A stretch of 43,602 bases of DNA from a virus (lineage: Duplodnaviria > Heunggongvirae > Uroviricota > Caudoviricetes). Below the pieces are notes generated by a model. The model saw nothing but the letters and a program-made list of their open reading frames with translations. It had not been told where the DNA came from and made no database searches. The stretch is taken from the IMG/VR virus record IMGVR_UViG_2541047812_000007, positions 1 through 43,602 of that record. One strand, 5' to 3'. The translations under genes and the position numbers were made by a program. This document shows positions 3,362 through 29,430 of this stretch, piece after piece; the stretch's first letter is position 1; every line of letters begins with the position of its first letter.

Positions 3362-3390
3362 CCCGCAAAATATTGCGGGCTTTTTTTTAA
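3362..3390 (+). terminator. Hairpin plus T-run at the tailspike 3' end
   Basis: CCCGCAA-aat-ATTGCGGG followed by TTTTTTTT on the plus strand; the minus-strand version has a weaker U-tract. Confidence 0.4.
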
Positions 3391-10266: not shown

Positions 10267-10280
10267 TTCATATCTCCTTA

Positions 10281-11483: not shown

Positions 11484-14400
11484 TCACCGCATCACCGGAT
11501 CCACTTGGTTTATTAGTGGCGCAATCCAGAACAGGTTATTGCCGGGTATCAGGGTTCGGACATTATGCACAATACGATCACCGGCATCACCATTCAACAC
11601 TCCTGAGGTCACATCAATGATGCTATCCGCAAGACCAAATGACGGTCCGAATAGAGATCCTACGAATCCACGACTGGCATACCTGGACTGTGTGCCAGTG
11701 CCAAATAAAGCCCCCAGCCCAACAGCACCACCAGTCGCCTTTTCAGCCATGTTGTTATATTCCATCAATGGCCCAAGAATACCGGATCTATCTATACCCT
11801 CAAGCACCAGCTTCTCTGGTGACCAGTCAACATTTTTCCCTTTCGATGCTTCTTTAAGCGCATAGACCAGTGAGCCAAGAGCAATCTGAAATGCAGTGCC
11901 ATAATAAAATTGCGCAGTTCCTTCCTGTAACCCACCAAGTAGCGCACGGTTGTATGAAGCCGTTGTGAATGATTTAAACTGAAATATCGTTCGCCCCATT
12001 GGAGTACTCGCCCATAAAGGTGTGTCACCAATACCGGGGGTGATGATAGTGTTATTAACGTCTTTCAGAACCGCTGACTGGAATACTCCGGCAACGTACT
12101 GATCGTCCCATTTATCAAAGTTACCAATGTGCCATCCATCAATTACCTCACCATGTTTCTCGAACTCACTGCGAATACGCGCAGCCATATTGTCGTTGAT
12201 ACCGAGTTTTGCCATGCGACGTGCAGAAAACGCACCAGACAAAATACCGTCTGACGTGAGCATTCCGTTCATGGATTTGTTTATGTCATTAAATCGATCC
12301 ATGAGTGTCAGCTTGCCGAAGGCATCAGTAATTCGCTCCATTCCTGCTTCGACTGCTGTTGTCCTGGAAGAACTGTCAACAAGATCACCAATTGCACGAG
12401 AACGTGAATGTAGTACAGTTTCCAATCCAATCCCCATCTTCAACATCTCTTCTTTGCTGGCCTTAAATGCCGGTGATTGGGATATCTGAGAAGCATAGCC
12501 TTTCATGGAGTTACGGAAACCATTAACCATAACCCCTCTGGCCAGATCTGGAATAGCTGATACTGTCATTCCACCGAGTTTGGTCGTGAAGTTCACATCC
12601 CGCAGAAAAGCGCCAGCACGAACAAAAAACGAAGACGGGTCATCAGGCATACCATATGTACCAACAAGACGATCGCGTAATGCTGTTATGTCTCTGAGAT
12701 CATTTGCTCTTGATTTTGAAAGTCTGGACTGTTCTTTCCGTAATTCCTTTTCGTACTTTCGCATTAATGAATCGAGTTTACCCTGAGGAACAACTTCACC
12801 ATTGCTCTCATAACGTGCTTTCAGATTTGCCACACTTTCGTCATATTTCGCCTTTATTTTTTCAGGCACTTCCCGTAACAGACTGTCATATTCGTCCTCA
12901 ATTAATTGCAGACGCTCTGTCATAGTTCGTTTGCCAAATGTTCTCGTCAACTCAATTTCTGCTGCCGCTTCACGGATATGACGTTGTAGAACGTAATTCA
13001 CATCACTTTCGAGATAATCCCTGATAAGACTATCAGGCACATTTAATGTTCTTTCTTTCGTACTACCTGCGGCTTTTACAGAAAATACGCTGACAAAATC
13101 CTGTGGAACCTTAGCACCAGTAATTTTATTAATTACGATATCCGCTGCAATTTCAGCATCCTCAGGATCCAGTGTTTTATTGCCTCTCGACCACCAGTCA
13201 ACCAAAATACGTCGAAATTTATCGCGTTCACTGATTATTTTTCCAACTTTATATATACGTGGGAAATAGCTTGCCTGGCCTAATGCTTTCAGTTCTTCAT
13301 CTGGCGGCAATAAACCAAGCTTTTGCATTTCAACCTTCACCCGATTTAATACAGTTCGCATCGCCTGCGCCGTTTCCTGAACAACAGGATTAGCATGCAC
13401 ATCACCGCTTCGCATAGCATTCCCAACCTGCTGACGAAATGAATCAAAACTCATGTCACCACCATCAGCTTTATACTTTGCGTATGCCTGTTTATTTCCG
13501 ACAACAACAGCAGCTTCTTCACGCTGCCATCCACGTGTACGGGTTTCTACAGCTACCGGTGTTTCAATCCCCCTTTCATTTCCTTTAAGGGTGAAATTAT
13601 TTTCGGCTAACTCCAGCGTTGTTTTTCGCACTGTCTTGGACGGAGACTCCATTAACCTTGTCAAAGGAGTAAGATAGCTCCCTGCTTTCCATGCAGCCTT
13701 TCCAACCACCCCACCGGAAACAGGGGTTAAATCATCCAGAGTCGCTGTATCAATTTTCATAGCACCAACACTACCACCATCAGAAAGCGAAGCGGCAGCC
13801 CTGTCAGTCGCTGATGTAATGCTCATATTATCAAGAGCATCAGCAACCTCACGCGTGGCTGCAGCCCGGACGGATGGCGAAAGCGCAACACCAGCACTGG
13901 CAAACACGCCGCTCATCATCGCACCCGCTGCAATGTGAGCGGCACTTTCACCCCATGAGCGTGTTATTTGCTGATTATTCAGCACAACCTCGCTTAATGC
14001 TGTACCGGCTGCACCAATCGCAATCTGTGAGCCAATACGCGCCAGTGCCCCTCCTTGAGCACCGGGGATAAACATTGACGCAACAGTAACCGGATCCATT
14101 CCCGCAGCAATACTGGCAAGGGTTCCAACTACGCCAGCATCAGACAATAAACGTCTGTCTTCATTTTCATCATCTATCTGCTGCTTAATCCACGCCGTTT
14201 CCTCTGGCGATCGGGAATCTGCAAATTTCGCCCCCCAGTATTCATAACCGTGCAACTCATTTTTATCAGCATATGGGTTATAACCTTCGACCGGTTCAAA
14301 CTGTCTGGCTGGTCGGAAAAAACCAGCCAGAATATTGTTCTGTCGCATTGCAGCCCCCCATACGGAAGGCTCCGGTGGCAATGGCTCAGGATTAGCCCCT

Positions 14401-14498
14401 TCCGGAAGGGCAACATCAAACCCAGTTTGTTCCGGCAAAACATTACCTGACGGGATCAGTCCGTTATTAAGATCTTCAGCTTGTGCATAAACTGGCAT
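11484..14498 (-). CDS. Large internal virion/ejection protein (1004 aa)
   Basis: Long ORF in the virion operon downstream of the transglycosylase protein; size and position like podovirus internal core proteins. Confidence 0.65.
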   Translation of the reverse strand: MPVYAQAEDLNNGLIPSGNVLPEQTGFDVALPEGANPEPLPPEPSVWGAAMRQNNILAGFFRPARQFEPVEGYNPYADKNELHGYEYWGAKFADSRSPEETAWIKQQIDDENEDRRLLSDAGVVGTLASIAAGMDPVTVASMFIPGAQGGALARIGSQIAIGAAGTALSEVVLNNQQITRSWGESAAHIAAGAMMSGVFASAGVALSPSVRAAATREVADALDNMSITSATDRAAASLSDGGSVGAMKIDTATLDDLTPVSGGVVGKAAWKAGSYLTPLTRLMESPSKTVRKTTLELAENNFTLKGNERGIETPVAVETRTRGWQREEAAVVVGNKQAYAKYKADGGDMSFDSFRQQVGNAMRSGDVHANPVVQETAQAMRTVLNRVKVEMQKLGLLPPDEELKALGQASYFPRIYKVGKIISERDKFRRILVDWWSRGNKTLDPEDAEIAADIVINKITGAKVPQDFVSVFSVKAAGSTKERTLNVPDSLIRDYLESDVNYVLQRHIREAAAEIELTRTFGKRTMTERLQLIEDEYDSLLREVPEKIKAKYDESVANLKARYESNGEVVPQGKLDSLMRKYEKELRKEQSRLSKSRANDLRDITALRDRLVGTYGMPDDPSSFFVRAGAFLRDVNFTTKLGGMTVSAIPDLARGVMVNGFRNSMKGYASQISQSPAFKASKEEMLKMGIGLETVLHSRSRAIGDLVDSSSRTTAVEAGMERITDAFGKLTLMDRFNDINKSMNGMLTSDGILSGAFSARRMAKLGINDNMAARIRSEFEKHGEVIDGWHIGNFDKWDDQYVAGVFQSAVLKDVNNTIITPGIGDTPLWASTPMGRTIFQFKSFTTASYNRALLGGLQEGTAQFYYGTAFQIALGSLVYALKEASKGKNVDWSPEKLVLEGIDRSGILGPLMEYNNMAEKATGGAVGLGALFGTGTQSRYASRGFVGSLFGPSFGLADSIIDVTSGVLNGDAGDRIVHNVRTLIPGNNLFWIAPLINQVDPVMR

Positions 14499-17215
14499 TA
14501 TTTAGATCCCCACGAAAAGTAATCTTTAAATTTGTCCATACGTTCGTTATGCAGGCGCTGATACTGCTCATCCAGAGCGCGATGCTTGTCTTTGAAGTTT
14601 CGTATAGCCTGTCCACGCATAATTTCTTCCTGCTCGTACTGCTCCCGTTCCTGCTGCATTTTCTTATAAGGTTCCCAATCTTCTAGTGATGGTTCCCAAC
14701 GCATAGGACGCCCATGTTTGTTATAAAACGGCTGGACCCGATCGATGCCATTTTCATCCTTAGTTCTTACCATAATGGCGTAATCACCATTACGAGGTGT
14801 TAACACGTCAGGGGTTATGAATAATTCTCCATTAATACGACTCTCAGGGGTTTTTGTCTCAACTACAGGAGCATTACCTGACGTGATCCCAAGCAACGTC
14901 GGACTGGTTGTTATAATCTCTTTGCGCTCACCGTACATCAGCCGTTCTTTTTCAGCTTTCCACTGCGCCGCCTGCCAGCCTGACGGCCCATATTGATAAA
15001 GCGCCTCCGGTGCATATTTCATAAACTGCGCTTCTCCGTTAACCTCGCTGATACTCCAGGTGCGGGCTATCTGCTGGTTGGTCATTTGCTTCGCTACGTC
15101 AGCGTTACCACCAGCAACGCGGTAGTTAATGTCATACAGCGTCTGATAGTCATTACGGAATCTAGCTGCTTCCGGCGTCTGGTCATCCGCAGACGGATCC
15201 CAACGGAACCACTGCGCCATATTGCTGACAGCAGAATTCATCGCCTTGCTGCGATTATTTTTGTACTCTTTTGAACTCTGCGTTGATGCCAATTGAGCTT
15301 TAAGAGCATCGGTCTGGTTGTACGTCAGGTTCTGCGCCTGCTCGATAGCCGCATCAGCAGACATGCCAGAATCTGTTAGTTGCTTAACAGTCAGATAAAA
15401 ACCCTGCATATCCTTCGGCATATTTCCAATAGATGCATTGTCTGTTTCATATAACCGACTAAACAAATTCGCTGCATTTTTAACCACTTCCTGATTGCTG
15501 GATCTGGATACTGCTGAAAGCTGCGTGATGACCTGCGAAGGCATGATGCCAGTCTGAGCCACAAGCCGAACAACCCCATCATGAGTGGAGGCATCATTAA
15601 TACGAAAGTTCTGCGCCATTTCTGTGTAATCAGCAGCTTTCTGCATTGATTTGTTGCTTGGGTCTAATTTTTCACCTATTGTCAGCGCCTCATTGAATCT
15701 GCGTGAATCACGTTGCGCCTGAATTGCTTCATTTGATCGCTGAAGCAATGCAGACAATTTTCCGTAAGCATCGAGTTTTAACGCATAGTGAGGATCGTTA
15801 ACCTCAGGCTTCACTTTCTGCATTTCTTCTTGCTGCTGAGAAGGAGGTAAATACTGAATTGCCTGGAATATTCTCGCGTTATCAATCGCTATATCCAGTT
15901 GATTGATTATTTTATCTGCATTTTTTCCATACCCCCTGATGATAGTCTCCTGAGCCGGTATATAATCTGGAACCTCACCGTTATATAGCTGGGCCATGGT
16001 GTTATTAATAGCTGGCTCAAGCTGTTCTAATATTAACTTCCTTTGCTTTTCTATCTGACTATTAGCAAGGTTATCTATTTGATAAATAGTCAGCGGATCC
16101 ATTCCAGTTTTATTTTTTCTATATCGGGAAAGCCACCCTTGTGTTTCTGATGGAAGATTTCGGATAAATTCTTCTTCTGATATTTCACCTTTACGTGGAT
16201 CACCGACTTTGGCGATCAGTTTATCCACGTTACCCATCCCCCAGTTATATGCTGCTCCGGTCAATATTTCGGAGCCGTACTTACCATACAGTTGATTTAC
16301 ATAGTCACTGGCGAGCATTTCATGCTGTTGTTCGTCCGTAGGGTTGTATTTAACGCCACGCTTGGCCGCCAGTTCTTTCCCTGTGCCCGGCATTAACTGG
16401 TATTTCCCCTGGGCTCTCTCTCCAGAAGATGTTATCGGTCCTTCAAGAAGACTACCATCAGGATTAAAATGTCGATCACCTGATTCAACAAGGCGTATGG
16501 CACGCATGTCCATGCCTCCAGAATCATTTTTCTGAAACAGACCATTTAGCCATCCTTCTGGATTGGCAGCGGCATAATTCTTCGCCCGCATTTCTGTGGC
16601 ACGGCGATCATCACTTTCTATTTCTTCCAGAATGCGTTCTTGTGACCATCCCCTGGCAGCTCCATATCTAGCAATGGCTACCATTCTGGAATTTCTGGCT
16701 AAAGTGGCAGTTTGCGGGTCATTCCAGGCATCCGCTTCATTTTGTATCCATAATTTTCTCGTTGCCTGATATTGCTCATCTTCATAGGCATTTGTCTGCC
16801 CTATCTCATGTCTGAGAACTCCAGTACTGAACTGAATTTTCTGTGTTCTGGCTTGTTGCAAAAACATATTTCTTGCTGCTTCATCAGTCAATGAAGCAGC
16901 TATTTCTTCCACATCCTGATCAAATCCAGATATGTACTCTTGCCCCTTACCAATCGCATTTTTGCCTTGTTGTGCATAAAAACCGGTTTGAGGGTTATAA
17001 AGACGTTCATTGCTGCGCTGATTAAGCTGAAGGATGGCATCCTGAGACAATGCAACATTCGCTTTCTGCCTGGCTTCACCATATGCCACCGCATACTGAT
17101 CTGCGACATTCGCCAGCACCTGACCTGCTTGAGGAACATCGAAGATCTGAAAACCACCGGTTTGCACACCACGACTTTGCACCTGGCGTCCGGATGTAGT
17201 AGGAACAACAGGCAT
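14498..17215 (-). CDS. Internal virion protein with lytic transglycosylase (SLT) domain
   Basis: SLT motifs LVESGD, AQGKYQLMPGT and AAYNWGMGNV at aa ~235-335 (nt ~16211-16515). Confidence 0.8.
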   Translation of the reverse strand: MPVVPTTSGRQVQSRGVQTGGFQIFDVPQAGQVLANVADQYAVAYGEARQKANVALSQDAILQLNQRSNERLYNPQTGFYAQQGKNAIGKGQEYISGFDQDVEEIAASLTDEAARNMFLQQARTQKIQFSTGVLRHEIGQTNAYEDEQYQATRKLWIQNEADAWNDPQTATLARNSRMVAIARYGAARGWSQERILEEIESDDRRATEMRAKNYAAANPEGWLNGLFQKNDSGGMDMRAIRLVESGDRHFNPDGSLLEGPITSSGERAQGKYQLMPGTGKELAAKRGVKYNPTDEQQHEMLASDYVNQLYGKYGSEILTGAAYNWGMGNVDKLIAKVGDPRKGEISEEEFIRNLPSETQGWLSRYRKNKTGMDPLTIYQIDNLANSQIEKQRKLILEQLEPAINNTMAQLYNGEVPDYIPAQETIIRGYGKNADKIINQLDIAIDNARIFQAIQYLPPSQQQEEMQKVKPEVNDPHYALKLDAYGKLSALLQRSNEAIQAQRDSRRFNEALTIGEKLDPSNKSMQKAADYTEMAQNFRINDASTHDGVVRLVAQTGIMPSQVITQLSAVSRSSNQEVVKNAANLFSRLYETDNASIGNMPKDMQGFYLTVKQLTDSGMSADAAIEQAQNLTYNQTDALKAQLASTQSSKEYKNNRSKAMNSAVSNMAQWFRWDPSADDQTPEAARFRNDYQTLYDINYRVAGGNADVAKQMTNQQIARTWSISEVNGEAQFMKYAPEALYQYGPSGWQAAQWKAEKERLMYGERKEIITTSPTLLGITSGNAPVVETKTPESRINGELFITPDVLTPRNGDYAIMVRTKDENGIDRVQPFYNKHGRPMRWEPSLEDWEPYKKMQQEREQYEQEEIMRGQAIRNFKDKHRALDEQYQRLHNERMDKFKDYFSWGSK

Positions 17216-17790
17216 CAGTAACCTCCTATTTTGAATCGGGAGTCAGAATTCATAAAACCTGAGTTAGATAACATTGGCGTCCCACCACTAGATGTACTTC
17301 CTTTAGAGAACGGACTCCACGTCCCACCAAACATCTGGTACGCACCGTATGCCTTCAGAGGCGCAGTGAGCAATGTTGTTGCTGCTCCCACATTCCCCTG
17401 TTTACGGGCTGAACTGGCTTCTGCTTTATAGTTGGCAGCCTGAACCTGATAACCGTAAGCCTCGCGTTGCGCGTTATTCACCGTCGTCAGAGAATCAAGA
17501 GCGCCAAACTGGGCAGTGTCGCCAAATATATCCAGCGCGTTACCTGTAGATAAATCAGCGCCGGTAGCCCCCATTGTCGCCGCCTGTGTACCAAGCCGCT
17601 GTCGGGTCTCTCTGCGCCGTTGCTCAGCTTCAGCGTTACCTCTGTTTATTGCATCATTTGCCTGAGCTGTGGCTATATCTGCGTTCGCTTCTGCAACCTT
17701 CGAGGCATACTTTCCCTGTTGGTACTGGGTGTATGCCTGAATGCCACTCATGGCGAGCATTGCGCCACCAGCAATAACCGGATCGCACAT
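17215..17790 (-). CDS. Internal virion protein (191 aa), gp14-like position
   Basis: Ala/Gln-rich protein between the small gp13-position gene and the large core proteins. Confidence 0.55.
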   Translation of the reverse strand: MCDPVIAGGAMLAMSGIQAYTQYQQGKYASKVAEANADIATAQANDAINRGNAEAEQRRRETRQRLGTQAATMGATGADLSTGNALDIFGDTAQFGALDSLTTVNNAQREAYGYQVQAANYKAEASSARKQGNVGAATTLLTAPLKAYGAYQMFGGTWSPFSKGSTSSGGTPMLSNSGFMNSDSRFKIGGY

Positions 17791-18254
17791 TATTTTCTCT
17801 CCATGTGAAATCTGTGGAAATTAAGACCAAGAGCACCATAAGGCGCGGCTTCTTCAAGCCTGAATCCAAGCCAGTGCAGCCATGCTTTGGCAACATGGTT
17901 TCGCTCGTCGACATAGTTTTCCAGGCGCGGATAAACTGCCAGCATCTGCTGCAATACAGGGCGGCAGTGGCGAAGAAATGTCTTCTGATATTTTTCGATA
18001 CGACTGGTTCCGACCAGCCAGGGCGTACCATTGCCACCGATCATTGACGCCGGAGATACGCCAAACATGGTTACCAGTTCTCCGTTCGCAAATCCTGACC
18101 AGGCCATAGTCGCAGTACGCAGACCAACACGCAGCGCATCTTCGGTAGTCATCAGTGATACCGCATACAGTTCGTCAATATCAGCCTGACGAACATCCGG
18201 CAAAATCATCTGAAGATGCTCTTCGGTTGCGGGAATAATTTGAACATCGACCAT
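17790..18254 (-). CDS. Virion-associated protein (154 aa), gp13-like position
   Basis: Position in the tail/core operon only; no family assigned. Confidence 0.5.
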   Translation of the reverse strand: MVDVQIIPATEEHLQMILPDVRQADIDELYAVSLMTTEDALRVGLRTATMAWSGFANGELVTMFGVSPASMIGGNGTPWLVGTSRIEKYQKTFLRHCRPVLQQMLAVYPRLENYVDERNHVAKAWLHWLGFRLEEAAPYGALGLNFHRFHMERK

Positions 18255-20725
18255 CAGAATCCCCCAACAGTAAGGCGAGGAATAACGGCAAGAACAGACA
18301 GCGGCAACGGATCAAGCTGACGGATTTTTACACGTCCGTTTTTGCCCCAGTTACTGTCCAGTTTCACTTCTACTTTTCCGGTAGCATCATCAACAGGATC
18401 ATCGTAGAACTCGAATTCACGCTGTGGATATTCGTACCATTTACCGCCGGGCGTAGTCGCCCAGATGCCGCGACTGGCATTCACAACCAGAGTAACGGAC
18501 GGGATCACCTGTTTTTTGTCCAGCAGCGTTTCCTGTCCGTTAATGTTGATATCCAGTGTTTCGAATTCAGCAGTTATTGGCAGGCCGATGTGCACAACAG
18601 CCCCAGGTGATTCCAGCGTGACGGCACCTCCGGAAACCACTTTCTGTGGTTCCACGTTCGCATCAGAGAGGATGTTTACGGTCTGGCCTTCAAGATGAGA
18701 CAAGCCGCCAAATGTCCGGCGCGCCATCTGCCAGTTCGTGGTGGCCACATTCCTGAGGGATGGCGGGACGTTCCTGTTAGCACGAACCACTACAGCGGTA
18801 TTGCTGGTTACAGAAATAATGTCGCAACGTAATTCTTTTGACACCTCATCGCCAGTATCAGGATCAGTTCCGGTATAAGGGAACTGTAGTTGCGCGCCGA
18901 CATCACTACTGGTGAAGTACGCACCACCAGAAACACTGATTGTATATTCCGCGCGGTAATCCCATTCGCCAGAACCACCAGTGATGGTCATCGTTCTGTC
19001 AGACGTATTTCTTCCATCATAGCTAAGGCCAGAATCAACAAAGAAAGCATCTTCATCGCTGGTAAATAAACGGCTGGACAGTCGCTCGATGTATCTCACT
19101 GTTTGCCCGTTAACGGTTCGGTTAATGACGAAATACACCGCATCTTCATTGCCTTCGCTGATACTGCATGTGCTTTCATATTTTCCGGTACTGGACTGTG
19201 GTGCCCATGCAAAAACCTGTTGATCACGCAGATAGGTCATCACCAGTAATTTACCGTCATCACGAATGCAGAAGGCGCTGGAGTAAGGGACAATAGAGAA
19301 GCACCAGTCAACAATGCTGTGCTTCTGAAAAAGATGATTGGCAAGGATAGTAAGGTCGTTCCCCTGATAGCCGTCAACATCGAATGAATAGGCCAGATCA
19401 CGGACAACACTGCCTTTCTCCTGGACGAACAGAGCAATATTCGCCACGGCAATTGGTGGGACGTTGCTTGAGCCATTTGATCCCTGAGAGCTGAATGCAA
19501 ATGATGATGGGGTTAACACTTTGTTCTGGTCGCCGGTGATGACGTACTCACCTCCGGAAGTCAGCGCCACCAGCGAACCAACATCAATCAGGTGGCGGAT
19601 CTCATTAACCTGACGCCCGGCATAGGTGTAGATAATTCTATCGTCATCCTGCGTAGGATTGCTTTTGCCAAAATCCTTATAATCCCCAGTACGGCTGGCC
19701 CAGATAGTCTGAGGGAACGCAGTCGATGCGGCGAAGTAAAGACGCTGTTGATAATAAACAACAGTGCCAGGATAACCATTAACACTGTTCCAGGCATATT
19801 TAGCCCATTTATAGCTGGCATTATCCTCGCCAACGACCTGCGAAGGGATATAGGAAATCACCTCAGCAGTTGCAGTAGTGCCATTTACAGCAGTTATACG
19901 GGCAATGCCAAAACCACTGTGCAGATACTCCCACTCAATGCCAGTATCATCATCACCGGAGCCTCCCCAGCCATCCCATGATGTGCCTTCTGTATGCGAA
20001 GGGCGCAAAGTGCCTGTTTTGCCTGCTGTAACGGCGCGATAGTAGTTACTGTCTGCACGGCGAATATCGCCAATCGACGTACTCTTACTGGTTTCCCATA
20101 CCGGTACTGAATCCACTGCTGGCTGTTCCAGATAGAACAATTTGCCTACCTGCTCCGCGCCAAAAATAGAGGCGCTTGCCGTTAACGTAATTGTCCCGGT
20201 GCTGGCGCTGGCATAAACCGTCACTGACTCGTCAATATTGATATCTTCAAATGGCCCGTTCTTCGTTACCACATCAACCAGTTGCCAGTTGTCATGCGCA
20301 TAGCGGCGCAACTCTTTCGGCGGGTATGCCGGATGAACCAGCGTAAGCACGTCTGCGCTTTGCGTGAATTTAATTCTGAACAGATCGGCTTCAGTATATG
20401 GCGTGGCAATTTCATAAATAACATTGCTGCTGTTCAGCACCAACGCACCATCTTTGATAACGCGCATGTACTGGTGTCCGAACTCCAGAGCATAAGTCTG
20501 AACCGTCGAGAACTGGAACGGGATCAGGCGGCATTTCCGATTTGGGTATTTGGCGGCACCGACAAAACGCGTACCAGGTCGACTCTCAACGCCGCCATAC
20601 TGCCGCACGATAAAGTTATCGCACTTGCGCAATGCCACCTGGTACTTCGCCATGTCGATACGACCGTACAACGACGGTCCAATCTCACCACCGGCAAAGC
20701 TGGGCTGGATCCAACTGATAGCCAT
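18254..20725 (-). CDS. Tail tubular protein B-like (nozzle)
   Basis: 823 aa; N-terminal pattern loosely resembles T7 gp12; follows the gp11-like gene. Confidence 0.6.
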   Translation of the reverse strand: MAISWIQPSFAGGEIGPSLYGRIDMAKYQVALRKCDNFIVRQYGGVESRPGTRFVGAAKYPNRKCRLIPFQFSTVQTYALEFGHQYMRVIKDGALVLNSSNVIYEIATPYTEADLFRIKFTQSADVLTLVHPAYPPKELRRYAHDNWQLVDVVTKNGPFEDINIDESVTVYASASTGTITLTASASIFGAEQVGKLFYLEQPAVDSVPVWETSKSTSIGDIRRADSNYYRAVTAGKTGTLRPSHTEGTSWDGWGGSGDDDTGIEWEYLHSGFGIARITAVNGTTATAEVISYIPSQVVGEDNASYKWAKYAWNSVNGYPGTVVYYQQRLYFAASTAFPQTIWASRTGDYKDFGKSNPTQDDDRIIYTYAGRQVNEIRHLIDVGSLVALTSGGEYVITGDQNKVLTPSSFAFSSQGSNGSSNVPPIAVANIALFVQEKGSVVRDLAYSFDVDGYQGNDLTILANHLFQKHSIVDWCFSIVPYSSAFCIRDDGKLLVMTYLRDQQVFAWAPQSSTGKYESTCSISEGNEDAVYFVINRTVNGQTVRYIERLSSRLFTSDEDAFFVDSGLSYDGRNTSDRTMTITGGSGEWDYRAEYTISVSGGAYFTSSDVGAQLQFPYTGTDPDTGDEVSKELRCDIISVTSNTAVVVRANRNVPPSLRNVATTNWQMARRTFGGLSHLEGQTVNILSDANVEPQKVVSGGAVTLESPGAVVHIGLPITAEFETLDININGQETLLDKKQVIPSVTLVVNASRGIWATTPGGKWYEYPQREFEFYDDPVDDATGKVEVKLDSNWGKNGRVKIRQLDPLPLSVLAVIPRLTVGGF

Positions 20726-21330
20726 CAGGACAACCTCGCAATGGTAAACTCGTCAACCGGTGGCTGTGGTTCCTGTGATTCATTCTGGCTATGCGAGCCA
20801 GCACTAAGAATCACGCGATTGTACATATTGAGGGCAAACGTACCGAGGTCTGCATTCCCAGTCAGCGCCATGTTAATAGCTGCCGCAAGACGCCAGGCCA
20901 ACGCCTCCATAAAAATGGCATCAAACATGTTCACATCTGTAACGCGAGAGACATACTTGAGCCATGCCTGAGGCTGGTCTGTGTAGATCAACTTTCCTGT
21001 TCCGTTGGTGTCTACACCTACTTCGTACTGAACGCGCATTGCTGCTGTTGGATTGCGTACACCAGGAAGCATAATTTCAGTAATGCGCAGACAATCGGAC
21101 GGGTACTGATACGCATATTCCCAGTCAGGCGGTGGATTGCTCGTATCTGCAAGCGCCACGCGTTTGGTAGCAAAGTTCCAGTCAAAATCAGAAAGCACAG
21201 CATCACGGCAGGCCTCAAAGTGCAGCGAACATTCCCCCGCTTCCTTGCTGGCTTCCGTCAGGCTGTTAATGCTGCGGCTGTTGCCAATATTGGACAGCGC
21301 ACGATTGCAGATCTCTACTACAGAGGCCAT
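20725..21330 (-). CDS. Tail tubular protein A-like (adaptor)
   Basis: 201 aa; N-terminus (VVEICNRALSNIGNSRSINSLTEA) resembles the T7 gp11 N-terminal pattern. Confidence 0.55.
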   Translation of the reverse strand: MASVVEICNRALSNIGNSRSINSLTEASKEAGECSLHFEACRDAVLSDFDWNFATKRVALADTSNPPPDWEYAYQYPSDCLRITEIMLPGVRNPTAAMRVQYEVGVDTNGTGKLIYTDQPQAWLKYVSRVTDVNMFDAIFMEALAWRLAAAINMALTGNADLGTFALNMYNRVILSAGSHSQNESQEPQPPVDEFTIARLS

Positions 21331-21345
21331 AAGTTTCTATACTCC

Positions 21346-21370
21346 TGCAATAAAGGGGCCGAAGCCCCTT
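21346..21370 (-). terminator. Hairpin plus U-tract between head and tail genes
   Basis: Minus-strand GGGGC-ttcg-GCCCC followed by TTTATT; comparable in position to T7 T-phi. Confidence 0.45.
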
Positions 21371-21386
21371 GTCTGATTCGCGAGGC

Positions 21387-21731
21387 TTACACGCCCAGTT
21401 CTTTACGCTTATCTGCGATCTTCTCGCGGAGCGTTTCGGCTTTGGCGTTATGGTGTGGCTTCTCGTTAAAGAGCAATTCGTACTCTTCACGGAGCTTATC
21501 CAGTTCACCATCATCTGACACATCGTTGATGATTTTGGTGCTGGTTGCTGCCATAGACACCTTTCCTGCTACCTTTGCTTTTGCCTGTCTGGCTGCATCG
21601 TTAACAGGTTCCAGTGCGCTACCAGGCTCACCTTCGTATTCGATTTCTGCCCCCTCCGGCCACAGTGTGTTATGGATATGAGAGAGGCGCAGAACGCGGT
21701 ATCTTGGTTTCTCACCTGACATCGATATCAC
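21387..21731 (-). CDS. Hypothetical virion-module protein (114 aa)
   Basis: ORF in the structural operon; charged. Confidence 0.5.
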   Translation of the reverse strand: MISMSGEKPRYRVLRLSHIHNTLWPEGAEIEYEGEPGSALEPVNDAARQAKAKVAGKVSMAATSTKIINDVSDDGELDKLREEYELLFNEKPHHNAKAETLREKIADKRKELGV

Positions 21732-21732
21732 C

Positions 21733-22170
21733 TTAACCAGTTACTTTTGAGCGGATCGGATACGGCGTATTGGCATCAACATCAAGATTGATACCCGCAG
21801 TGAATTTGCCAGCCGTTAGTGGGCCAGTTGCGACGGAGTAGTTAACACGCAGATATCGCTGAACACCGGCTGGCACCTTTGCAGAAACAACTCGCTTACC
21901 TGCTGTCAGGGTGGCCTTTGCCAGTGCGCCACTATCATAAATAGTGGTCCATGAGCTGTTATTCTCACTCGTCTGCAACTGGATGTTTACAGTTGCCTCA
22001 CCACTTGCCGTGGCGGCTTCGTTAACCAGCACCCAAAACTCAAGCGGGTAACCCACGCCGATATCACGACGTTTTCCGTCAATTGGACCGAGATCGATTA
22101 CGTCAGTAGAAGCCGCGGTATTCGTAACCGCCTGAGCTTCGGAGAACATCAACAGTTTGTCGGTGATCAT
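21733..22170 (-). CDS. Putative capsid decoration/accessory protein (145 aa)
   Basis: Immediately downstream of the major capsid gene; Thr/Ala-rich; assignment is by position only. Confidence 0.45.
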   Translation of the reverse strand: MITDKLLMFSEAQAVTNTAASTDVIDLGPIDGKRRDIGVGYPLEFWVLVNEAATASGEATVNIQLQTSENNSSWTTIYDSGALAKATLTAGKRVVSAKVPAGVQRYLRVNYSVATGPLTAGKFTAGINLDVDANTPYPIRSKVTG

Positions 22171-22221
22171 CTTCTTTCTCCATTAGTGGGTCTGTTACGA
22201 CCCACAGGTTAATAACAGGCG

Positions 22222-23208
22222 TTACACCACGCGGGCTTCTGTTTCCAGAAGCGCATCAGTTTCACGGATTGGTACACCACGGAATGAAGTCCACCACTCG
22301 CCTTCAGTCTCTTTTACGCTGATAGCCAGAGATGTTTTCTCCAGAGACTGCAGATCAAGAGCCTGGCCTACAGTGCGGTTCATGTAGAACACCGGGCGGC
22401 CCATGCCACGGTTTGGAATGCGATGTAGTGCTTTAACCATCAACTTCGCAATATTTGCGGCAGAGGAAGGTTCTGAAAGATTGCTGACATCGATATTTGC
22501 AATGCGAACAACATAACGCCAGTCACGCAGAGAAAGTCCGTTATCCCATTTGTAATGGGTACGATAGCCTTCGTACTTGCCGCCATTAGCATCTTCCAGT
22601 GTCACCTGGCCTTTATCTTCCATCTGGATGCCAGCCTTCTGCCCTTTCGGGAAGATGCCATGCACGGTGTTTTCGCCCCACACCACTAACCAGATTGAGG
22701 TGTTATCTGTACCCGTGCCACCAGCATCAATGATGTTCTGAGCATTACCCGCAGACAGGCTGGAATAGCGGGAGGACAGTCCCATAAACTGCTGAGGGTT
22801 AACGCTGGAATCACCATAAAACAGCGTCTGCGCCATCTGCTGATTCATCGCTTCAATAAATGCGCGGTCTTCAGACAGGCGGAATTCGGCGGTATTGCCG
22901 TTCAGATCAGCCAGTGACTTATCGACTTCAGCATAGGTTTCCAACATACCAATGGAATCGGTGACCTGCACTGTGGTTGATTTGCTTGGTTGTACACCAT
23001 AGTTCAACAAACGCCAGGTAGCTGAAGGTAAACCAGAACGAATGGTGGTTTTGTGTCCGGTAGGAAGGTTCCCTTCGACAAAAGGCATATCCTGAAGGAT
23101 CGGGTTAGTTTGACCGAGAAGCTCGATAATCTTATCGACTTTCCCATCTTTATCGACGCGCTTACCCCAGTCAGCCAGCGTTAGCGCAGTTAAGCCTTTA
23201 ACAGCCAT
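22222..23208 (-). CDS. Major capsid protein
   Basis: 328 aa directly downstream of scaffold and portal in the canonical order. Confidence 0.8.
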   Translation of the reverse strand: MAVKGLTALTLADWGKRVDKDGKVDKIIELLGQTNPILQDMPFVEGNLPTGHKTTIRSGLPSATWRLLNYGVQPSKSTTVQVTDSIGMLETYAEVDKSLADLNGNTAEFRLSEDRAFIEAMNQQMAQTLFYGDSSVNPQQFMGLSSRYSSLSAGNAQNIIDAGGTGTDNTSIWLVVWGENTVHGIFPKGQKAGIQMEDKGQVTLEDANGGKYEGYRTHYKWDNGLSLRDWRYVVRIANIDVSNLSEPSSAANIAKLMVKALHRIPNRGMGRPVFYMNRTVGQALDLQSLEKTSLAISVKETEGEWWTSFRGVPIRETDALLETEARVV

Positions 23209-23222
23209 TGTTATTTCCTCTC

Positions 23223-23924
23223 TTATTTGCCATAGAGCACTTCGGCCGCACTACGCTGGCCTTCATTACCACCGGTGACCATGCCATCCTCAGACATCGC
23301 CTTTCCGATTTTCACGAACGTTTTGACCAGATCAGGGTGATTACCCAGTCCGGTGGTGTTCAGATATTCTTTGAGTTCAGGTGTCCCGAACTGGTCAAGC
23401 GCACGCTGTGCGGCGCTAAGGTTAGAAATCAACTTGTCGCCACCGATTTCTTTGTCAGCTTTTACATCCGCAGCCCACTGCTCGGTTGTTTTCTGCCAGG
23501 CTTCTGCCTGGCGCTGCTGAACACCTGCCAGAATCTTCGGATAAGCATCAACCAGCTTTTGCGCTTGCTCGTTGGTCAGGTTAAGTTCTCGCGCCACCGG
23601 CTCGAATTCCTTCAACGCTTCTGTATCCAGCTCTACGCCTTCGGCTGCCTGAAACTCGTACTTCTCAGGCGCACCCTCTGGTTTATCGCCGTCCTTTTTT
23701 TCATCCTGCTTATCGTTTTCAGGCTTTTTGTCATCAGCAGGTTTATCGCCATCAGCAACAAGTTGTGGCTTATCACCTTCCTGTTGTGATGGATCACCAA
23801 CTGGAGCAGGGTTATCACCTGCAGGCGCTGACGGTTCTGACGCAGCCGGAGCTGCTCCACCATCGACTGGTTGCTCATTGCAAAGACGGCGATACAGCAA
23901 ACGCTCAAATAAATTCATGATCAC
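23223..23924 (-). CDS. Scaffolding protein
   Basis: Acidic, Pro/Ala/Asp/Lys-rich 233-aa protein between portal and capsid genes. Confidence 0.7.
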   Translation of the reverse strand: MIMNLFERLLYRRLCNEQPVDGGAAPAASEPSAPAGDNPAPVGDPSQQEGDKPQLVADGDKPADDKKPENDKQDEKKDGDKPEGAPEKYEFQAAEGVELDTEALKEFEPVARELNLTNEQAQKLVDAYPKILAGVQQRQAEAWQKTTEQWAADVKADKEIGGDKLISNLSAAQRALDQFGTPELKEYLNTTGLGNHPDLVKTFVKIGKAMSEDGMVTGGNEGQRSAAEVLYGK

Positions 23925-24217
23925 TCCTGTTCACTGGCCTCTTTGGCCATCTTCAAATACTGTTCAGGGCAATGCGCCATAACGCGCTGAAACAGTTCCA
24001 GCGCCAGATTGCGTTGCCCCTCATTAAATGCCATTGCCATAGCGTCCATCGGTGAGATAGCGGAAAACACACGGCCTTTCTCCAGCACCGACCAGACAAC
24101 GCGACGCCCCTGTTCACTGCTCATGACAAAGCGAATGTCATCAATTTCACGCTGCGCCATGTCACGTTGCTTACGGGCGTTTTCTTCTTTCAGTTGATCG
24201 TCTTCGTAATCTGTCAT
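23921..24217 (-). CDS. Hypothetical protein (98 aa) between portal and scaffold
   Basis: ORF with 4-nt overlaps on both sides. Confidence 0.5.
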   Translation of the reverse strand: MTDYEDDQLKEENARKQRDMAQREIDDIRFVMSSEQGRRVVWSVLEKGRVFSAISPMDAMAMAFNEGQRNLALELFQRVMAHCPEQYLKMAKEASEQE

Positions 24218-25893
24218 TGTGATTGCCCACCCTGACCACTAACTGCATTCGCCATAGCTGACAACACACTCGGATCCGAAGTTTTAGCTTCGCTTAGCGT
24301 CTTGGCCCCCTGTGCCGCCGCCATCCCCATCGCCATCATTTGTTGCTGCTGTTGCTGCTGTGCCCGTTGCTGGCGAGCCTGCTCAACCTGTTCCTGCGGA
24401 ACAATGACGGTTGGAGACACTCCGGACATATCAGCGAATGCATCGATCGCCTGATCAACGTTGAGTTTGTCGAGAGCTTCTGGTTTCGCTTGCGCAAGTT
24501 GACCAATGAAGTTAACCGTGGACGCCAGACTGGACAGGCCGATAGACTTCTGCGCCTGAGCCATGACGGAAATGTATTCGACCTTCAGGGGCATACCTTC
24601 CATCACGTCTGGCGGTGGCGGCAGCATGTTTTTACGCACCATCATCGAGAAAGAGCGGTCAATGAGAGGATTAAGACATTCGTCGTTCAGACGCTCCAGA
24701 ACCGGCCCCAACATCAGAAGTTTTTCTTCTTTCATTTCGATCACCGCTTCAACAGGCATCGAGCGGGTATTGATGTTCTGCAACATCATGAACAGATCGA
24801 CAAAGTAGGCGCTGTTAATGATTTGACGAGTGTCCTGAATGTCTGCCACCAAATCTGCTGTACTGGGGTTAACCAGATAAGCAGGCCTGAAACCATCCTG
24901 ACCAGTAATCTGATCGATATACGTGATGTCGCCAGGAAGAAGGGAGGCACGCTGATTCTTGAGGGAAGTCGGAGCAACCATCGGCGGATTGGTGGCTTTA
25001 TCAATCAACTGCGACTTGCGCTTCTGGAGAAGCTGCAATGCCTTAACAGGTCCAAGCGCCAGCATACCCGGGCATGATGATCCATAAACATCTTCGCCGT
25101 TAACTTCCCAGCGCGGAGCCATAATTGGAAACTCATCGAATCCGGACTCACGCAACAACTTGTCGTTATCGCCACAAACCTCGTAATAAACCGATTTGAA
25201 TGGCTTGTTCTTGCTATCCAGCTTCGATGTATCGCGGTCAATGTTCGGGTAAACCGAATGCATCACTTCAATCCACTTCTCGTAGGTTCCGCTTTCCCAC
25301 ATGCTTTTTACGGATTCGCTGACGTTATTTAGCCCGAACTCCTGAACAAGCTGACGAACAGTCATAGAGAACTTGCGAAAACAGGTGTCCACACTGCCAC
25401 GAGGTGAGTTAGCCAGGTAGTAACTGCCTATCGGGAATGGCATTGTGCGAATGATGTCCTCGTCATCCTCCAGCACCGCCATTGCACCAGTGCTGTATGT
25501 GCCGAGGCTTCCGTATAACTGCGGCAGCGACTGATAGAGATTCGACTTATTGAACATATCGTTCATGCGGTTCTGCACCGCCTCAAGCCACAACTTAACA
25601 GGGCCATAATCCATCATTTCAGGATCTGGCGTAGCCAGGCGAAACCACGGACGCGCGGGGCTTGTGATGCCTGACATCATGCCGCTGGCGAGAGTGCGCG
25701 CCGCCATAGTCCCGGTCGAATCAATAATGCGTGTATTGCGTCGATCGTTACGGTTGACCTCAGAAGTCAGAAAGCGGGAACCACGCGGGTTGATGTAATC
25801 ACTCAACTCGCGCCAGTGCGGCTCGAACGACTGACGCTCGCTTTCAAATTGTGCGAACTGTTTGTTCAATCGCTCTTTAGTTGTTTCCGCCAT
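24214..25893 (-). CDS. Portal protein, podovirus type
   Basis: 559 aa; Gln/Ala/Met-rich C-terminal tail like T7-type connectors; located between terminase and scaffold. Confidence 0.85.
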   Translation of the reverse strand: MAETTKERLNKQFAQFESERQSFEPHWRELSDYINPRGSRFLTSEVNRNDRRNTRIIDSTGTMAARTLASGMMSGITSPARPWFRLATPDPEMMDYGPVKLWLEAVQNRMNDMFNKSNLYQSLPQLYGSLGTYSTGAMAVLEDDEDIIRTMPFPIGSYYLANSPRGSVDTCFRKFSMTVRQLVQEFGLNNVSESVKSMWESGTYEKWIEVMHSVYPNIDRDTSKLDSKNKPFKSVYYEVCGDNDKLLRESGFDEFPIMAPRWEVNGEDVYGSSCPGMLALGPVKALQLLQKRKSQLIDKATNPPMVAPTSLKNQRASLLPGDITYIDQITGQDGFRPAYLVNPSTADLVADIQDTRQIINSAYFVDLFMMLQNINTRSMPVEAVIEMKEEKLLMLGPVLERLNDECLNPLIDRSFSMMVRKNMLPPPPDVMEGMPLKVEYISVMAQAQKSIGLSSLASTVNFIGQLAQAKPEALDKLNVDQAIDAFADMSGVSPTVIVPQEQVEQARQQRAQQQQQQQMMAMGMAAAQGAKTLSEAKTSDPSVLSAMANAVSGQGGQSQ

Positions 25894-25907
25894 TTCAATG
25901 ACTCCGG

Positions 25908-26114
25908 TTACTGACCAAGCAGCGTTTTACCGCTGGTATTAGCAGTTGATGTGTCGCCCTGAGAACCGGTAAGCAGCGTAGAACTACGACCAGCAGCAAC
26001 GCGACGGCGACGAGTTTCTTCGTCGCGGGCATCAACAACGGCGGCATCCTGCTCCTGTGGTGCTGCCTGAACTTCTGGTGTTGCAGGCACTGATGGTGAG
26101 CTACCCATGCACAT
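25908..26114 (-). CDS. Small low-complexity protein upstream of portal
   Basis: 68 aa with SD GGAG; could be non-coding. Confidence 0.35.
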   Translation of the reverse strand: MCMGSSPSVPATPEVQAAPQEQDAAVVDARDEETRRRRVAAGRSSTLLTGSQGDTSTANTSGKTLLGQ

Positions 26115-26204
26115 ATCAATGACTCCGTACGCAATTAAATTATTACCAATTTAACCACATATGATTTATTTATCGTAGACAGTTGACATTTAACGCGCGA
26201 ATTA

Positions 26205-26219
26205 TTACCTTTCAGGTAA
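26205..26219. promoter_or_regulatory. Palindromic operator-like site TTACCTTTCAGGTAA
   Basis: Identical to the 6611 site; 16 bp downstream of a TTGACA hexamer. Confidence 0.4.
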
Positions 26220-26541
26220 CCAAAGAGTTCATTCCGGTTACTAACCTGACTGGCTTGTCGTTAAATTGAACAGGTGGAGTGAGCTTTTATTTTGAGCAGT
26301 ACGGCGTATGGCACATGCGCCGATAGCGGTCTGGATGCGTTTAAGGGGCACCCTCCCTGGCTGTGGCAAACGAACCAGGTAGCCGGAATGTGCAAGTCGA
26401 GCGGTTTTATTCCGCGCACGGGGATTCACCATCCCGGCGATTCGGTGTGACGCCTCGGAAGAGACGAGGGTACAACGATGAGAGCATTTATGGAGCCGCG
26501 ACAAAGTGTGGCGCCTTAACAGGCTAAGTGCTCTCAGCGTT

Positions 26542-26618
26542 GTGGCATTAGCTCAGTTGGACAGAGCAACCGCCTTCTAAGCGGTTGGTCGCAGGTTCGA
26601 ATCCTGCATGCCACGCCA
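26542..26618 (+). tRNA. tRNA-Arg, anticodon UCU (reads AGA)
   Basis: 77-nt cloverleaf folded by hand: acceptor GTGGCAT/ATGCCAC, D-arm GCTC/GAGC, anticodon stem ACCGC/GCGGT with loop CTTCTAA, T-arm GCAGG-TTCGAAT-CCTGC, discriminator G, encoded CCA. Confidence 0.9.
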
Positions 26619-26787
26619 GAATCACGCCTAAGGACCGTGATGCCAGAAGTTCCAGGTGCTTGGCGGTGATGGTTTCCCTTGAAGGACTATCACCGCCCTT
26701 GCCCTTTTTACAGCAGGACGCCATTGCGATGACTTCATGCTGTAAACCAGTACAGCCACGGAAGGCATAACTCATTGCTTCCAGTTC

Positions 26788-26811
26788 GCCCGGTTCGCCG
26801 GGCATTTTTTT
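26788..26811 (+). terminator. Rho-independent terminator downstream of the tRNA
   Basis: GCCCGG-ttcg-CCGGGC followed by ATTTTTTT; a second hairpin with U-tract lies at 26662-26710. Confidence 0.7.
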
Positions 26812-26822
26812 AAGGTGAGATT

Positions 26823-27197
26823 ATGAACGACCAGCAAATCGAAAAAGAAATCGTTGAGAAAGGTAAAACGGCACCTCGTGTAACTCCTGAGAAAATTGAA
26901 GGTCTCATTTGCAGTGAGCATTTTTTTACTGCTGCGCAGGGGGATCATCAGGCTAAAGAAGATGACCTTATTTATAATCCAGAGCCTTATGTCGAAGCCA
27001 CCCCTGATGCTCTGCACCTTCTCACTTTCTGCGTCCTGGTGCTGCGCAACGGCTTCACCGTCACCGGAGAGAGCGCCTGTGCAAGCCCGGAAAACTTTGA
27101 TGCAGAAATTGGTCGGAAGATTGCCCGACAGAATGCTGTAAACAAAATCTGGATGCTTGAAGGTTACTTGCTGAAGCAGAAGTTAAGCGAGCAATAA
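26823..27197 (+). CDS. Hypothetical phage protein (124 aa), part of the plus-strand island
   Basis: SD AAGGTGAG before ATG; followed by a terminator; family not confidently recognised (possibly Gp49-like). Confidence 0.65.
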   Translation: MNDQQIEKEIVEKGKTAPRVTPEKIEGLICSEHFFTAAQGDHQAKEDDLIYNPEPYVEATPDALHLLTFCVLVLRNGFTVTGESACASPENFDAEIGRKIARQNAVNKIWMLEGYLLKQKLSEQ

Positions 27198-27217
27198 CAC
27201 CGTGACATATCACAAAC

Positions 27218-27245
27218 AGCCAGCCTATGAGCTGGCTTTGTTTTA
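27218..27245. terminator. Bidirectional hairpin between the island gene and terL
   Basis: AGCCAGC-ctatga-GCTGGCT with T-rich tracts on both sides. Confidence 0.5.
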
Positions 27246-27287
27246 TCCTCATCAGAGGATATCAACAACATTATCCCCTCAAGCGGA

Positions 27288-28763
27288 TTAAGCATAGGGA
27301 TCGTAATCTGTGATGGCCTTGCCTTGCTGGTTCTGCTGCCCGGGAATTCGCAGACGCTTAGACACAGGGAACGCAAACGTCAGCAGTAGCGCATCGCCTT
27401 TACCCGGTGAACGCCCAAGCCGCTCCTTGATATCTTCCTTCGGTTCGATAACGATTTTACCGTCCACTCGAACTTTGTACTCTGCCGCCGACAGGTCGTC
27501 TGCTGTTTCCTGGTCATCCAGCATGCCGCCCAGCCTCAGCCATGTCTTGCATGAATTGAACATCTCCCCACGCTTGTTGAGCATCTGCGGGTCAGTAGAC
27601 GCGCCACCGAACGGAACAAGTTGCCATGTACGACCCCAGCCGTCACCGATTGACTTCAAACCGGTTCCGTAACCGAAGTCGATGAACACCGCGTCAGCCT
27701 GATACTGGTCTTCAAAGTCAGCGATACGCTTCGCCATAATCAGATCGTCGGTAGTCTTGTTGCCAGTCCACAGCACCTTACTGTGTAGCCCCTGCCGCAG
27801 GTATATCACAGCGTCATCAACGCCGGAGTATGCCGGGTCAACGCCGATTATCACCGGAGCATGTGCAACCTGCGCAGCGGTTACCACCCGTTTCATTGCC
27901 TCGTCAGTAAGACCGGTAGGGATAAACTGCAATTCAGATGCATCAGGGAATATGCCACGCACACGGATTTTAACGAAGTCGCTGTCTTCCCCGTAGTCAT
28001 CAACCCATTTCTGCAACTGCTGTTTGTTAGTGCCTTCCACCGTCCGGCTGTCAATCTGCGCAGTTTTCCAGCGGTGTTTATATTTGCGGAAACATTCGCG
28101 AAAACGCCCGGTGTTACGTGTAGGGTTTCCGAACGCCACCCAAATAATCTCAGTGTCTTCGTCCGTAAGCGCACCCTCGGCAACTTCCCACACCAGATCC
28201 GCAATGTTCGACGCTTCATCAAACACCACGATGATGCGTTTGCGCTCGTTGTGTAGTCCGGCGAATGCCTCGGTGTTGTGCTCAGACCAGGGTATTGCGT
28301 CAGCCCGCCACCGCTTGTCGTGCCCTAGGTCATTGCTGTACATCGCGGTAGCGGTACAGGTAAACCAGTCTTTCGTGATAGCAAGGTTCGACCACTTGAT
28401 AATTTCCGGCCAGGTCTTCGTTCGTAGCTGGTTGTCGGTGTTGGCGGTCACCACGACCTTACAATCCTCGCAAGTGGACATGCCCCAGTTGATCAGCATT
28501 GAGATGAATGCGGATTTACCAATACCGTGACCAGAAGCGCGTGCCAGCATAAGCGGCTGATAGCGCGTCTCTGGATTCTGCAGGTGATCACGTATCTCTC
28601 GGAACGCATCAGCCTGCCACTGACGTGGGCCGGTGGCATGTGCCAGTTCAGTCCCCTCTTCCCCCCATGGGAACGCATAGAGGGCATAGCCAAGCGGATC
28701 GTGAGTGAACCCTGCAATATCCTCGATTAACTGCTCTTCAGGAGATAACGCTGTATCTGTCAC
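27288..28763 (-). CDS. terL: Terminase large subunit
   Basis: 491 aa with Walker A-like ASGHGIGKSAF; GTG start overlapping the terS stop (GTGA). Confidence 0.9.
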   Translation of the reverse strand: MTDTALSPEEQLIEDIAGFTHDPLGYALYAFPWGEEGTELAHATGPRQWQADAFREIRDHLQNPETRYQPLMLARASGHGIGKSAFISMLINWGMSTCEDCKVVVTANTDNQLRTKTWPEIIKWSNLAITKDWFTCTATAMYSNDLGHDKRWRADAIPWSEHNTEAFAGLHNERKRIIVVFDEASNIADLVWEVAEGALTDEDTEIIWVAFGNPTRNTGRFRECFRKYKHRWKTAQIDSRTVEGTNKQQLQKWVDDYGEDSDFVKIRVRGIFPDASELQFIPTGLTDEAMKRVVTAAQVAHAPVIIGVDPAYSGVDDAVIYLRQGLHSKVLWTGNKTTDDLIMAKRIADFEDQYQADAVFIDFGYGTGLKSIGDGWGRTWQLVPFGGASTDPQMLNKRGEMFNSCKTWLRLGGMLDDQETADDLSAAEYKVRVDGKIVIEPKEDIKERLGRSPGKGDALLLTFAFPVSKRLRIPGQQNQQGKAITDYDPYA

Positions 28764-29356
28764 TGATTGCCATCCTGACGTTCTTTCAGTCTCTTCCTGG
28801 CTGCCGCTATGCGATCAGCAATTGTCACATTCACATTAACATCCAGGCGTTCTTTGAATGCGTTGACGTCGACGTGCTTACCAATCAGTTCGAGGTTCTT
28901 CACCTTGTCAGGCCATTTAATTTTTTTGAGGATTGTCTCTATCGAATCCTCGTTCATGTTCATGATGGTCGATGACAGATCAAAGCCACTAAGCGTAGTG
29001 CGCCAGATTTTCGGCCACTCGCGGATTGGCTTAAGGCTCCCATCGTCGTTGAGGATGTCGATCACGTCCATCTGGTCGATCTCCACCAGGCGCATGAGAA
29101 CGTAATCAGCACTGACGCGCATTCGTTTGTTGCGCTCTTCCATCAGCTCGGCAATCCGTTTTTGAATGCGTTCATCGCGCATCATGAGACTGGCTTTAAC
29201 TGCCGCTGTATTTGGGGAGAATCCTGCGTTAATCGCAGCCTGAGTCTGGTTTTCAGGCGTTTGGATGTATGACTGGCAATAAGCCTCCTGCATTGCTGTT
29301 AGTGGCTTAAATTGCGTTGATTTGCGTTTATAGGTTTTAGGTTCAGCAGGCATCAT
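28760..29356 (-). CDS. terS: Terminase small subunit
   Basis: N-terminal pattern LTAMQEAYCQSYIQTPENQTQAAINAGFS typical of small terminase HTH; start set at ATG 29356 rather than the TTG ORF-track start at 29434. Confidence 0.7.
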   Translation of the reverse strand: MMPAEPKTYKRKSTQFKPLTAMQEAYCQSYIQTPENQTQAAINAGFSPNTAAVKASLMMRDERIQKRIAELMEERNKRMRVSADYVLMRLVEIDQMDVIDILNDDGSLKPIREWPKIWRTTLSGFDLSSTIMNMNEDSIETILKKIKWPDKVKNLELIGKHVDVNAFKERLDVNVNVTIADRIAAARKRLKERQDGNQ

Positions 29357-29363
29357 AACCACC

Positions 29364-29395
29364 GTGGTAATAGTTACCGTTGTGGTAATAGTACC
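29364..29395. repeat. Tandem direct repeat GTGGTAATAGT(T)ACC x2 just upstream of terS
   Basis: Two copies (29364-29378, 29382-29395); core CCACCGTGG at 29359-29367. Confidence 0.5.
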
Positions 29396-29430
29396 ATGCA
29401 AAATAAAGCCGCCATAGTTGGCGGCAGTAT

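Follow-up and report, generated by a model that had tools for sequence, protein, structure and literature searches.

The DNA window analyzed in this work is the whole stretch of 43,602 nucleotides (nt) of virus record IMGVR_UViG_2541047812_000007, and its positions 11484-28763 can be identified by homology as a block of head, tail and DNA-injection genes from an Escherichia coli prophage of the epsilon15 (eps15)/phiV10 type. Very probably, the block forms the late (virion) operon of a temperate podovirus which looks intact, belongs with epsilon15, phiV10 and TL-2011b, and is integrated in an E. coli K1 strain. A T7-type tail and core are found beside a terminase of a different type and lambdoid early genes, a combination suggested in a first-pass annotation made from the letters alone, and supported here by fold, Pfam and PHROG evidence. 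In megablast searches of phage genomes the block is 98.0% identical in nt sequence to TL-2011b (NC_019445) across 97% of its length, whereas for phiV10, vB_EcoP_ZX5 (ZX5), O157 typing phages 9 and 10 and others, an identity of 98% extends over 64-65% of it, and Salmonella phage epsilon15 is about 75% identical. The order of the open reading frames (ORFs) is that annotated in the TL-2011b RefSeq entry and in eps15, and all the virion ORFs lie on the minus strand, at the positions originally given for them. Closely similar prophages have been identified in 28 of 5426 complete E. coli genomes, one of which is an O2:K1:H7 avian pathogenic strain.

The two tail genes are not covered by any Pfam or NCBIfam model, and neither are the large terminase subunit (TerL) and a 233-amino acid (aa) head protein described below. 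The 201-aa product of 20725..21330 is the orthologue of eps15 gp11 (85% identity), for which the eps15 GenBank record reports an HHpred match to T7 tail tubular protein A. The AlphaFold2 model of this protein (pLDDT 86) was searched with Foldseek against the PDB. The Carin-1 connector (1.5e-16), the LME-1 adaptor (5e-9) and then the PhiM1 adaptor were retrieved, along with T7 gp11 (7box; E-value 1.7e-6, probability 1.0, TM 0.58-0.60), followed by the tail tubular proteins A of KP32, Kp7, Kp9, HRP29 and P-SCSP1u. The gene thus encodes a tail adaptor having the fold of T7 gp11. The adjacent 823-aa protein (18254..20725) is the orthologue of eps15 gp12 (88% identity), and is a member of a very large family, for which 18,269 cluster representatives were retrieved at E-values up to 0.001. 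A model built from 40 diverse members (AlphaFold2, pLDDT 90.6) matches the nozzle of Carin-1 at 3e-87 (TM 0.91) and that of LME-1 at 6e-42. T7-type nozzles are matched over the whole protein, at E-values ranging from 1.3e-24, scored by T7 gp12 itself, to 5e-21 (TM 0.50-0.55). In hhalign, the 40-sequence profile aligns with residues 350-466 of T7 gp12 (E-value 1e-4), and a phage nozzle (PDB 23sh chain T, "nozzle gp13") is found by the same profile at 2.3e-5. A strong match between the tubular tail B groups of eps15 and T7, in comparisons of hidden Markov models, had already been reported by Hardies et al. (2016, PMC4819975) for a central domain (residues 354-556 of T7 gp12). The gp11-like and gp12-like labels, initially attached to the two genes on weak N-terminal resemblance and position, therefore hold at the level of fold.

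The portal gene (24214..25893) belongs to the T7 gp8 family (Pfam PF12236 Head-tail_con, 5e-186). Its product matches phrog_332 and then phrog_449, and T7 gp8 matches the same two families in the reverse order. Downstream of the nozzle, the 154-aa protein encoded by 17790..18254 is internal virion protein A (IVP-A), and is gp13-like as first supposed. It falls in phrog_308 (1.2e-62), as T7 gp13 does (1.1e-42), although the Pfam Phage_T7_Gp13 model is matched below threshold (E-value 0.088). The next gene (17215..17790; 191 aa) encodes the gp14-like internal virion protein B (IVP-B), which matches Pfam PF24072 T7_gp14 at 4.4e-8, with 33.7 bits exceeding the curated cut-off of 27 bits. Two large proteins follow. 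The 905-aa protein (14498..17215) occupies the position of T7 gp15 and carries a lytic transglycosylase domain (Pfam SLT, residues 263-342, 3.9e-7), in keeping with the early report of such a domain in one of the large internal proteins. It resembles eps15 gp15 only in the first ~250 aa (42% identity). The 1004-aa protein (11484..14498) is the gp16-like internal protein D, and falls in phrog_342 at 6.4e-210. The match covers positions 203-1225 of the profile, T7 gp16 positions 4-1227. Because the match starts at position 203, the N-terminal transglycosylase part of T7 gp16 is missing in the 1004-aa protein. A colinear BLASTP match to T7 gp16 was found (E-value 8e-4), and the C-terminus matches phrog_684, "virion structural protein". 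No sequence match was obtained in the PDB, and no BLASTP match better than E-value 0.01 to eps15 gp16 or gp17. Similarity to phiV10 and ZX5 ends around 17309, within the IVP-B gene. By this comparison of sequences, two large proteins in the window and in TL-2011b take the place of the three present in eps15, phiV10 and ZX5.

Terminase and head genes have other affinities. TerL (27288..28763) is eps15-type, not T7-type, being 94% identical to the TerL of eps15. It matches phrog_2 at 8e-53, whereas the best family of T7 gp19 is phrog_38, in agreement with the early claim of a non-T7 terminase. No TerL match was found in Pfam or among PDB sequences. The small terminase subunit (28760..29434, minus strand; Pfam Terminase_2, 1.8e-29; phrog_51) starts just beyond the block. 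The major capsid protein (22222..23208) belongs to the eps15 gp7 family (Pfam PF20911 GP7, 2.8e-149). It is accompanied by a 98-aa Bbp19-like protein at the eps15 gp5 position (23921..24217; PF25181, 2.8e-17), a Bbp16-like protein at the eps15 gp8 position (21733..22170; PF21190, 5.9e-49) and a homologue of eps15 gp9 (21387..21731; 40% identity, E-value 4e-19), which does not match eps15 gp10. By sequence, capsid, Bbp16-like and Bbp19-like genes can thus be classified as eps15/BPP-1-type, not T7-type. The 233-aa protein encoded by 23223..23924 is labeled "protease" both in phrog_458 and in RefSeq. The label is old, and its grounds are weak. Library and PDB sequence searches gave no Pfam, NCBIfam or PDB match, no protease motif was seen on reading the sequence, and the N-terminal half is acidic and rich in proline and alanine. 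The protein had been called a scaffold; no family is detectable, and solely position and composition point to this role, which is plausible but unproven.

Head and tail genes are separated by a GC-rich hairpin with a UUCG loop (21346..21370, minus strand), identified by direct reading of the sequence. It consists of a perfect 7-bp stem (AAGGGGC-UUCG-GCCCCUU) followed by UAUUGC, with a short U-rich tail, and is unchanged in TL-2011b and ZX5. At the equivalent site, eps15 carries a hairpin of different sequence, which has a better U-tract and is annotated as a rho-independent terminator. The position is kept while the sequence changes, which supports a function for the hairpin. A parallel with T-phi of T7 had been drawn. 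The likeness is positional only, since the hairpin looks like an ordinary intrinsic terminator of the host type, and in eps15, TL-2011b and ZX5 it precedes not gp11, but the gene for the gp10 capsid staple.

Several observations weigh against the view that the block specifies a complete virion with a T7-type tail and core. BLASTP revealed no significant pairwise similarity between window proteins and T7 gp11, gp12, gp14 or gp17; the same holds for T7 gp8. T7 gp11 was not found by hhalign with a shallow alignment of 30 adaptor sequences (Neff 2.1), and hhalign, again run with a shallow alignment, relates the 1004-aa protein only weakly to T7 gp16 (probability 17%, E-value 0.0015). Between the 905-aa protein and T7 gp15 (phrog_1339), no link is detectable beyond position and size. 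As to the hairpin, the U-tract is short (UUUAUU), the element is not listed by a consensus terminator scan, and the z-score of the 65-nt local fold is only -1.2, which is not exceptional relative to shuffled sequences. Finally, the gp10 gene is missing in the window at 21331-21345, the start codon of the adaptor gene being located 16 nt after the hairpin. Without the staple, the capsid may not conform to the eps15 model.

The absence of gp10, which eps15, TL-2011b and ZX5 all host between hairpin and adaptor gene (in TL-2011b as gp32, 324 nt long and 42% identical to eps15 gp10; the gene is called "gp10: capsid staple protein" by PGAP in E. coli genomes), could indicate that the prophage is defective, and its virion module no longer able to make stable particles. 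Yet, the remaining virion ORFs are all full length. To count genomes lacking gp10, an asymmetric query of 83 nt was used, for which coverage of at least 80% is possible solely in gp10-less genomes. An earlier query of 250 nt was uninformative, because its two flanks get joined across the 324-nt insertion. The identical gp10-less junction was found in 69 of the 508 genomes carrying the region among the 5426 complete E. coli genomes, and in one isolated phage, EC.W1-9. The plaques of this phage are clear, its head measures 60 nm, and its titer drops only at 70 degrees C (bioRxiv 10.1101/2024.06.28.601134). Being found in 69 genomes and in a plaque-forming phage, the gp10-less state is a viable natural variant and does not testify to decay, and a defective module is improbable. 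Whether the window exemplifies a natural structural subtype of epsilon15-like virions, having no gp10 staple and a two-protein ejection set, is an evenly balanced question. If particles of this subtype were as stable and infectious as those bearing gp10, the virion would not require the staple, and one tail chassis would accept different ejectosome modules.

Still less probable is that the tail is a P22-type machine, made of a gp4 adaptor, a gp10 hub and a gp26 needle, and that the resemblance to T7 is superficial. The tailspike gene and the last of the core genes are separated by an immI-like block of accessory genes, and a similar arrangement is found in P22 between gene 16 and gene 9. The terminase of eps15 is related, according to a note in its GenBank record, to that of the P22-like phage Sf6, and the nozzle model matches P22 gp10 and Sf6 gp8 as well. 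P22 gp10, however, ranks 20 (2e-8, TM 0.30), and is outscored by T7-type nozzles, which align over the whole protein with the higher TM values reported above, by 13 to 16 orders of magnitude. Similarly, the adaptor model matches adaptors of the T7 gp11 type, and P22 gp4 is not in its list of PDB matches; the portal, in turn, resides in the Pfam family of T7 gp8. The profile and structure comparisons, suggested with the first-pass annotation, assigned no tail protein to P22-type or siphovirus families. That the T7 likeness denotes convergent folds and gene order, and not common descent, is hardly credible, since, though identity to T7 proteins in structural alignments is just 11-14% and BLASTP is not significant for most T7 pairs, at least six neighboring genes match at the family or fold level in the order of T7 genes 8, 11, 12, 13, 14 and 16, the gp12 profile match falls in the central domain reported by Hardies et al., and the Pfam T7_gp14 match exceeds its curated cut-off.

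Homology, fold and gene order of the block are observed directly. Assembly, stoichiometry and terminator activity can be envisaged by analogy with T7, eps15, Carin-1 and LME-1. According to this analogy, the eps15-type capsid protein would form a T=7 head of HK97 fold, into which the eps15-type terminase would package DNA through a dodecameric portal of T7 type. The 201-aa protein would close the portal as a T7-type adaptor ring, together with the 823-aa protein as a hexameric nozzle. Six trimeric endosialidase tailspikes would dock on adaptor and nozzle through an eps15-type N-terminal anchor. A core inside the head would be formed by four proteins, the gp13-like and gp14-like ones, the 905-aa protein with the transglycosylase domain, and the 1004-aa gp16-like protein. 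Upon infection, core proteins would be ejected, cut the peptidoglycan, and form a channel across the envelope, as they do in T7. Located past the gp9-like gene, the hairpin is most likely a partial intrinsic terminator for the host RNA polymerase, keeping the expression of tail and core genes below that of head genes.

The tailspike gene (3387..6506, minus strand) lies outside the block. It encodes a K1 endosialidase (Pfam End_N_terminal, End_beta_propel, End_beta_barrel, End_tail_spike, Peptidase_S74), in which an eps15-type N-terminal anchor is followed by the K1 endosialidase and the S74 chaperone domain. The protein is 100% identical to the tailspike of ZX5. From residue 193 to residue 1039, the identity to the tailspike of the P22-like phage CUS-3 is 95%, whereas residues 1-165 are 72% identical to eps15 gp20, and match the N-domain of the Carin-1 fiber at 1.5e-32. 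Judged from these identities, the gene qualifies as a clear case of exchange of receptor-binding domains between podovirus lineages. The N-terminus had been described as T7 gp17-like. The likeness is faint, Pfam PF03906 Phage_T7_tail being matched at an E-value of 0.011 with 15.9 bits, under the cut-off of 25.2 bits, and the anchor is rather of the eps15 gp20/Carin-1 type. Of note in this respect, the N-domain of the Carin-1 fiber is termed T7-like in the LME-1 paper (PMC12407071).

The immI-like accessory block spans positions 7275-10818 and includes genes for a Bro-N protein (7275-7970), a protein with the P22 antirepressor N-domain (9088-10026) and an Arc-domain protein (10357-10818). Early genes encode an integrase, RecT, a PDDEXK exonuclease, a helix-turn-helix repressor, an initiator with a DnaT domain and a homologue of lambda P, and the term lambdoid, by which the early modules had been described, is a fair one. 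Membership in the Autographiviridae, the T7-like phages proper, was considered as well, but the single-subunit RNA polymerase encoded by such phages is lacking. The four ORFs larger than 800 aa correspond to the tailspike, the two large core proteins and the nozzle, and none of the ORFs of this size is called a polymerase in the TL-2011b annotation.

Two features on the strand opposite to the virion genes are a tRNA-Arg(TCT) gene (26542..26618, plus strand), recognized by ARAGORN and by the Rfam tRNA model (73 bits), and a gene of the N4 gp49/Sf6 gp66 family (26823..27197, plus strand), located between TerL and portal. Both, as the Bbp19-, Bbp16- and gp9-like genes, had been omitted from the first-pass annotation. 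A minus-strand ORF (26548-26805) overlaps the tRNA gene. The megablast matches to the block include 64 Synechococcus phage hits, which may be due to tRNA-Arg(TCT). The best chromosomal match to window positions 1-25000 was found in strain FDAARGOS_1300 (NZ_CP069996.1 3691631-3728631). Because the match spans 37 kb and includes a TrbL conjugative-transfer gene, about 12 kb of foreign DNA appear to have been inserted in this copy of the prophage.

The coexistence in the eps15 group of a T7-type tail and core with a terminase of other origin is already known from Hardies et al., and is the textbook view of this phage group. They found that the terminase and the capsid of eps15 group with siphoviruses, a result read as horizontal transfer between families, and were unable to confirm IVP-C for eps15 and its relatives. 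Swanson and Cingolani (2022, PMC8954989) have noted that the core stack of eps15 is T7-like. Structure prediction confirms the published view of epsilon15-like temperate phages as having a T7-type tail and ejection core, and head and terminase of other origin. In addition, roles are fixed for genes called "hypothetical protein", "endolysin" or "protease" by RefSeq in hundreds of E. coli prophages. Beyond annotation the importance is limited, and the side observations overturn nothing. The gp10-less lineage, the alternative ejection modules and the K1 endosialidase mounted on an epsilon15 anchor may nonetheless be of use in studies of capsid stability and in phage engineering.

Comparison with known systems helps to delimit the likeness to T7. 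Portal family, adaptor and nozzle folds, and gp13, gp14 and gp16 families are shared with T7 (genes 8 and 11-17), as are the gene order and the presence of a hairpin resembling a terminator before the adaptor gene. In contrast to T7, the phage described here is temperate, its terminase is of another type, and by sequence, no T7 likeness is seen in its capsid, decoration and scaffold genes. The transglycosylase domain resides on the protein at the gp15 position, and not on gp16 as in T7, and about 5 kb of accessory genes part the tailspike from the core genes. The closest solved structures of adaptor and nozzle are those of the Cobetia marina phage Carin-1 (PDB 8CK1) and of the Legionella phage LME-1 (PDB 9EFK), with identities in Foldseek alignments of 32-44% and 17-19%, respectively. 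Carin-1 provides the closest solved structure for the tailspike anchor as well. The tails of the two phages are T7-like in structure and gene order, without sequence similarity (PMC12407071). Hosts and receptor-binding domains are different. Among the nearest relatives, eps15, phiV10 and ZX5 (genus Uetakevirus) have orthologous TerL, portal, capsid, gp8, gp9, adaptor, nozzle, IVP-A and IVP-B, and share the tailspike anchor, but carry gp10 and three large proteins (gp15, gp16 and gp17) after IVP-B. TL-2011b has the same gene order, including the 905- and 1004-aa internal proteins and the hairpin, and differs in hosting the staple gene between hairpin and adaptor gene, in having a different tailspike, and in carrying in addition an O-acetyltransferase.

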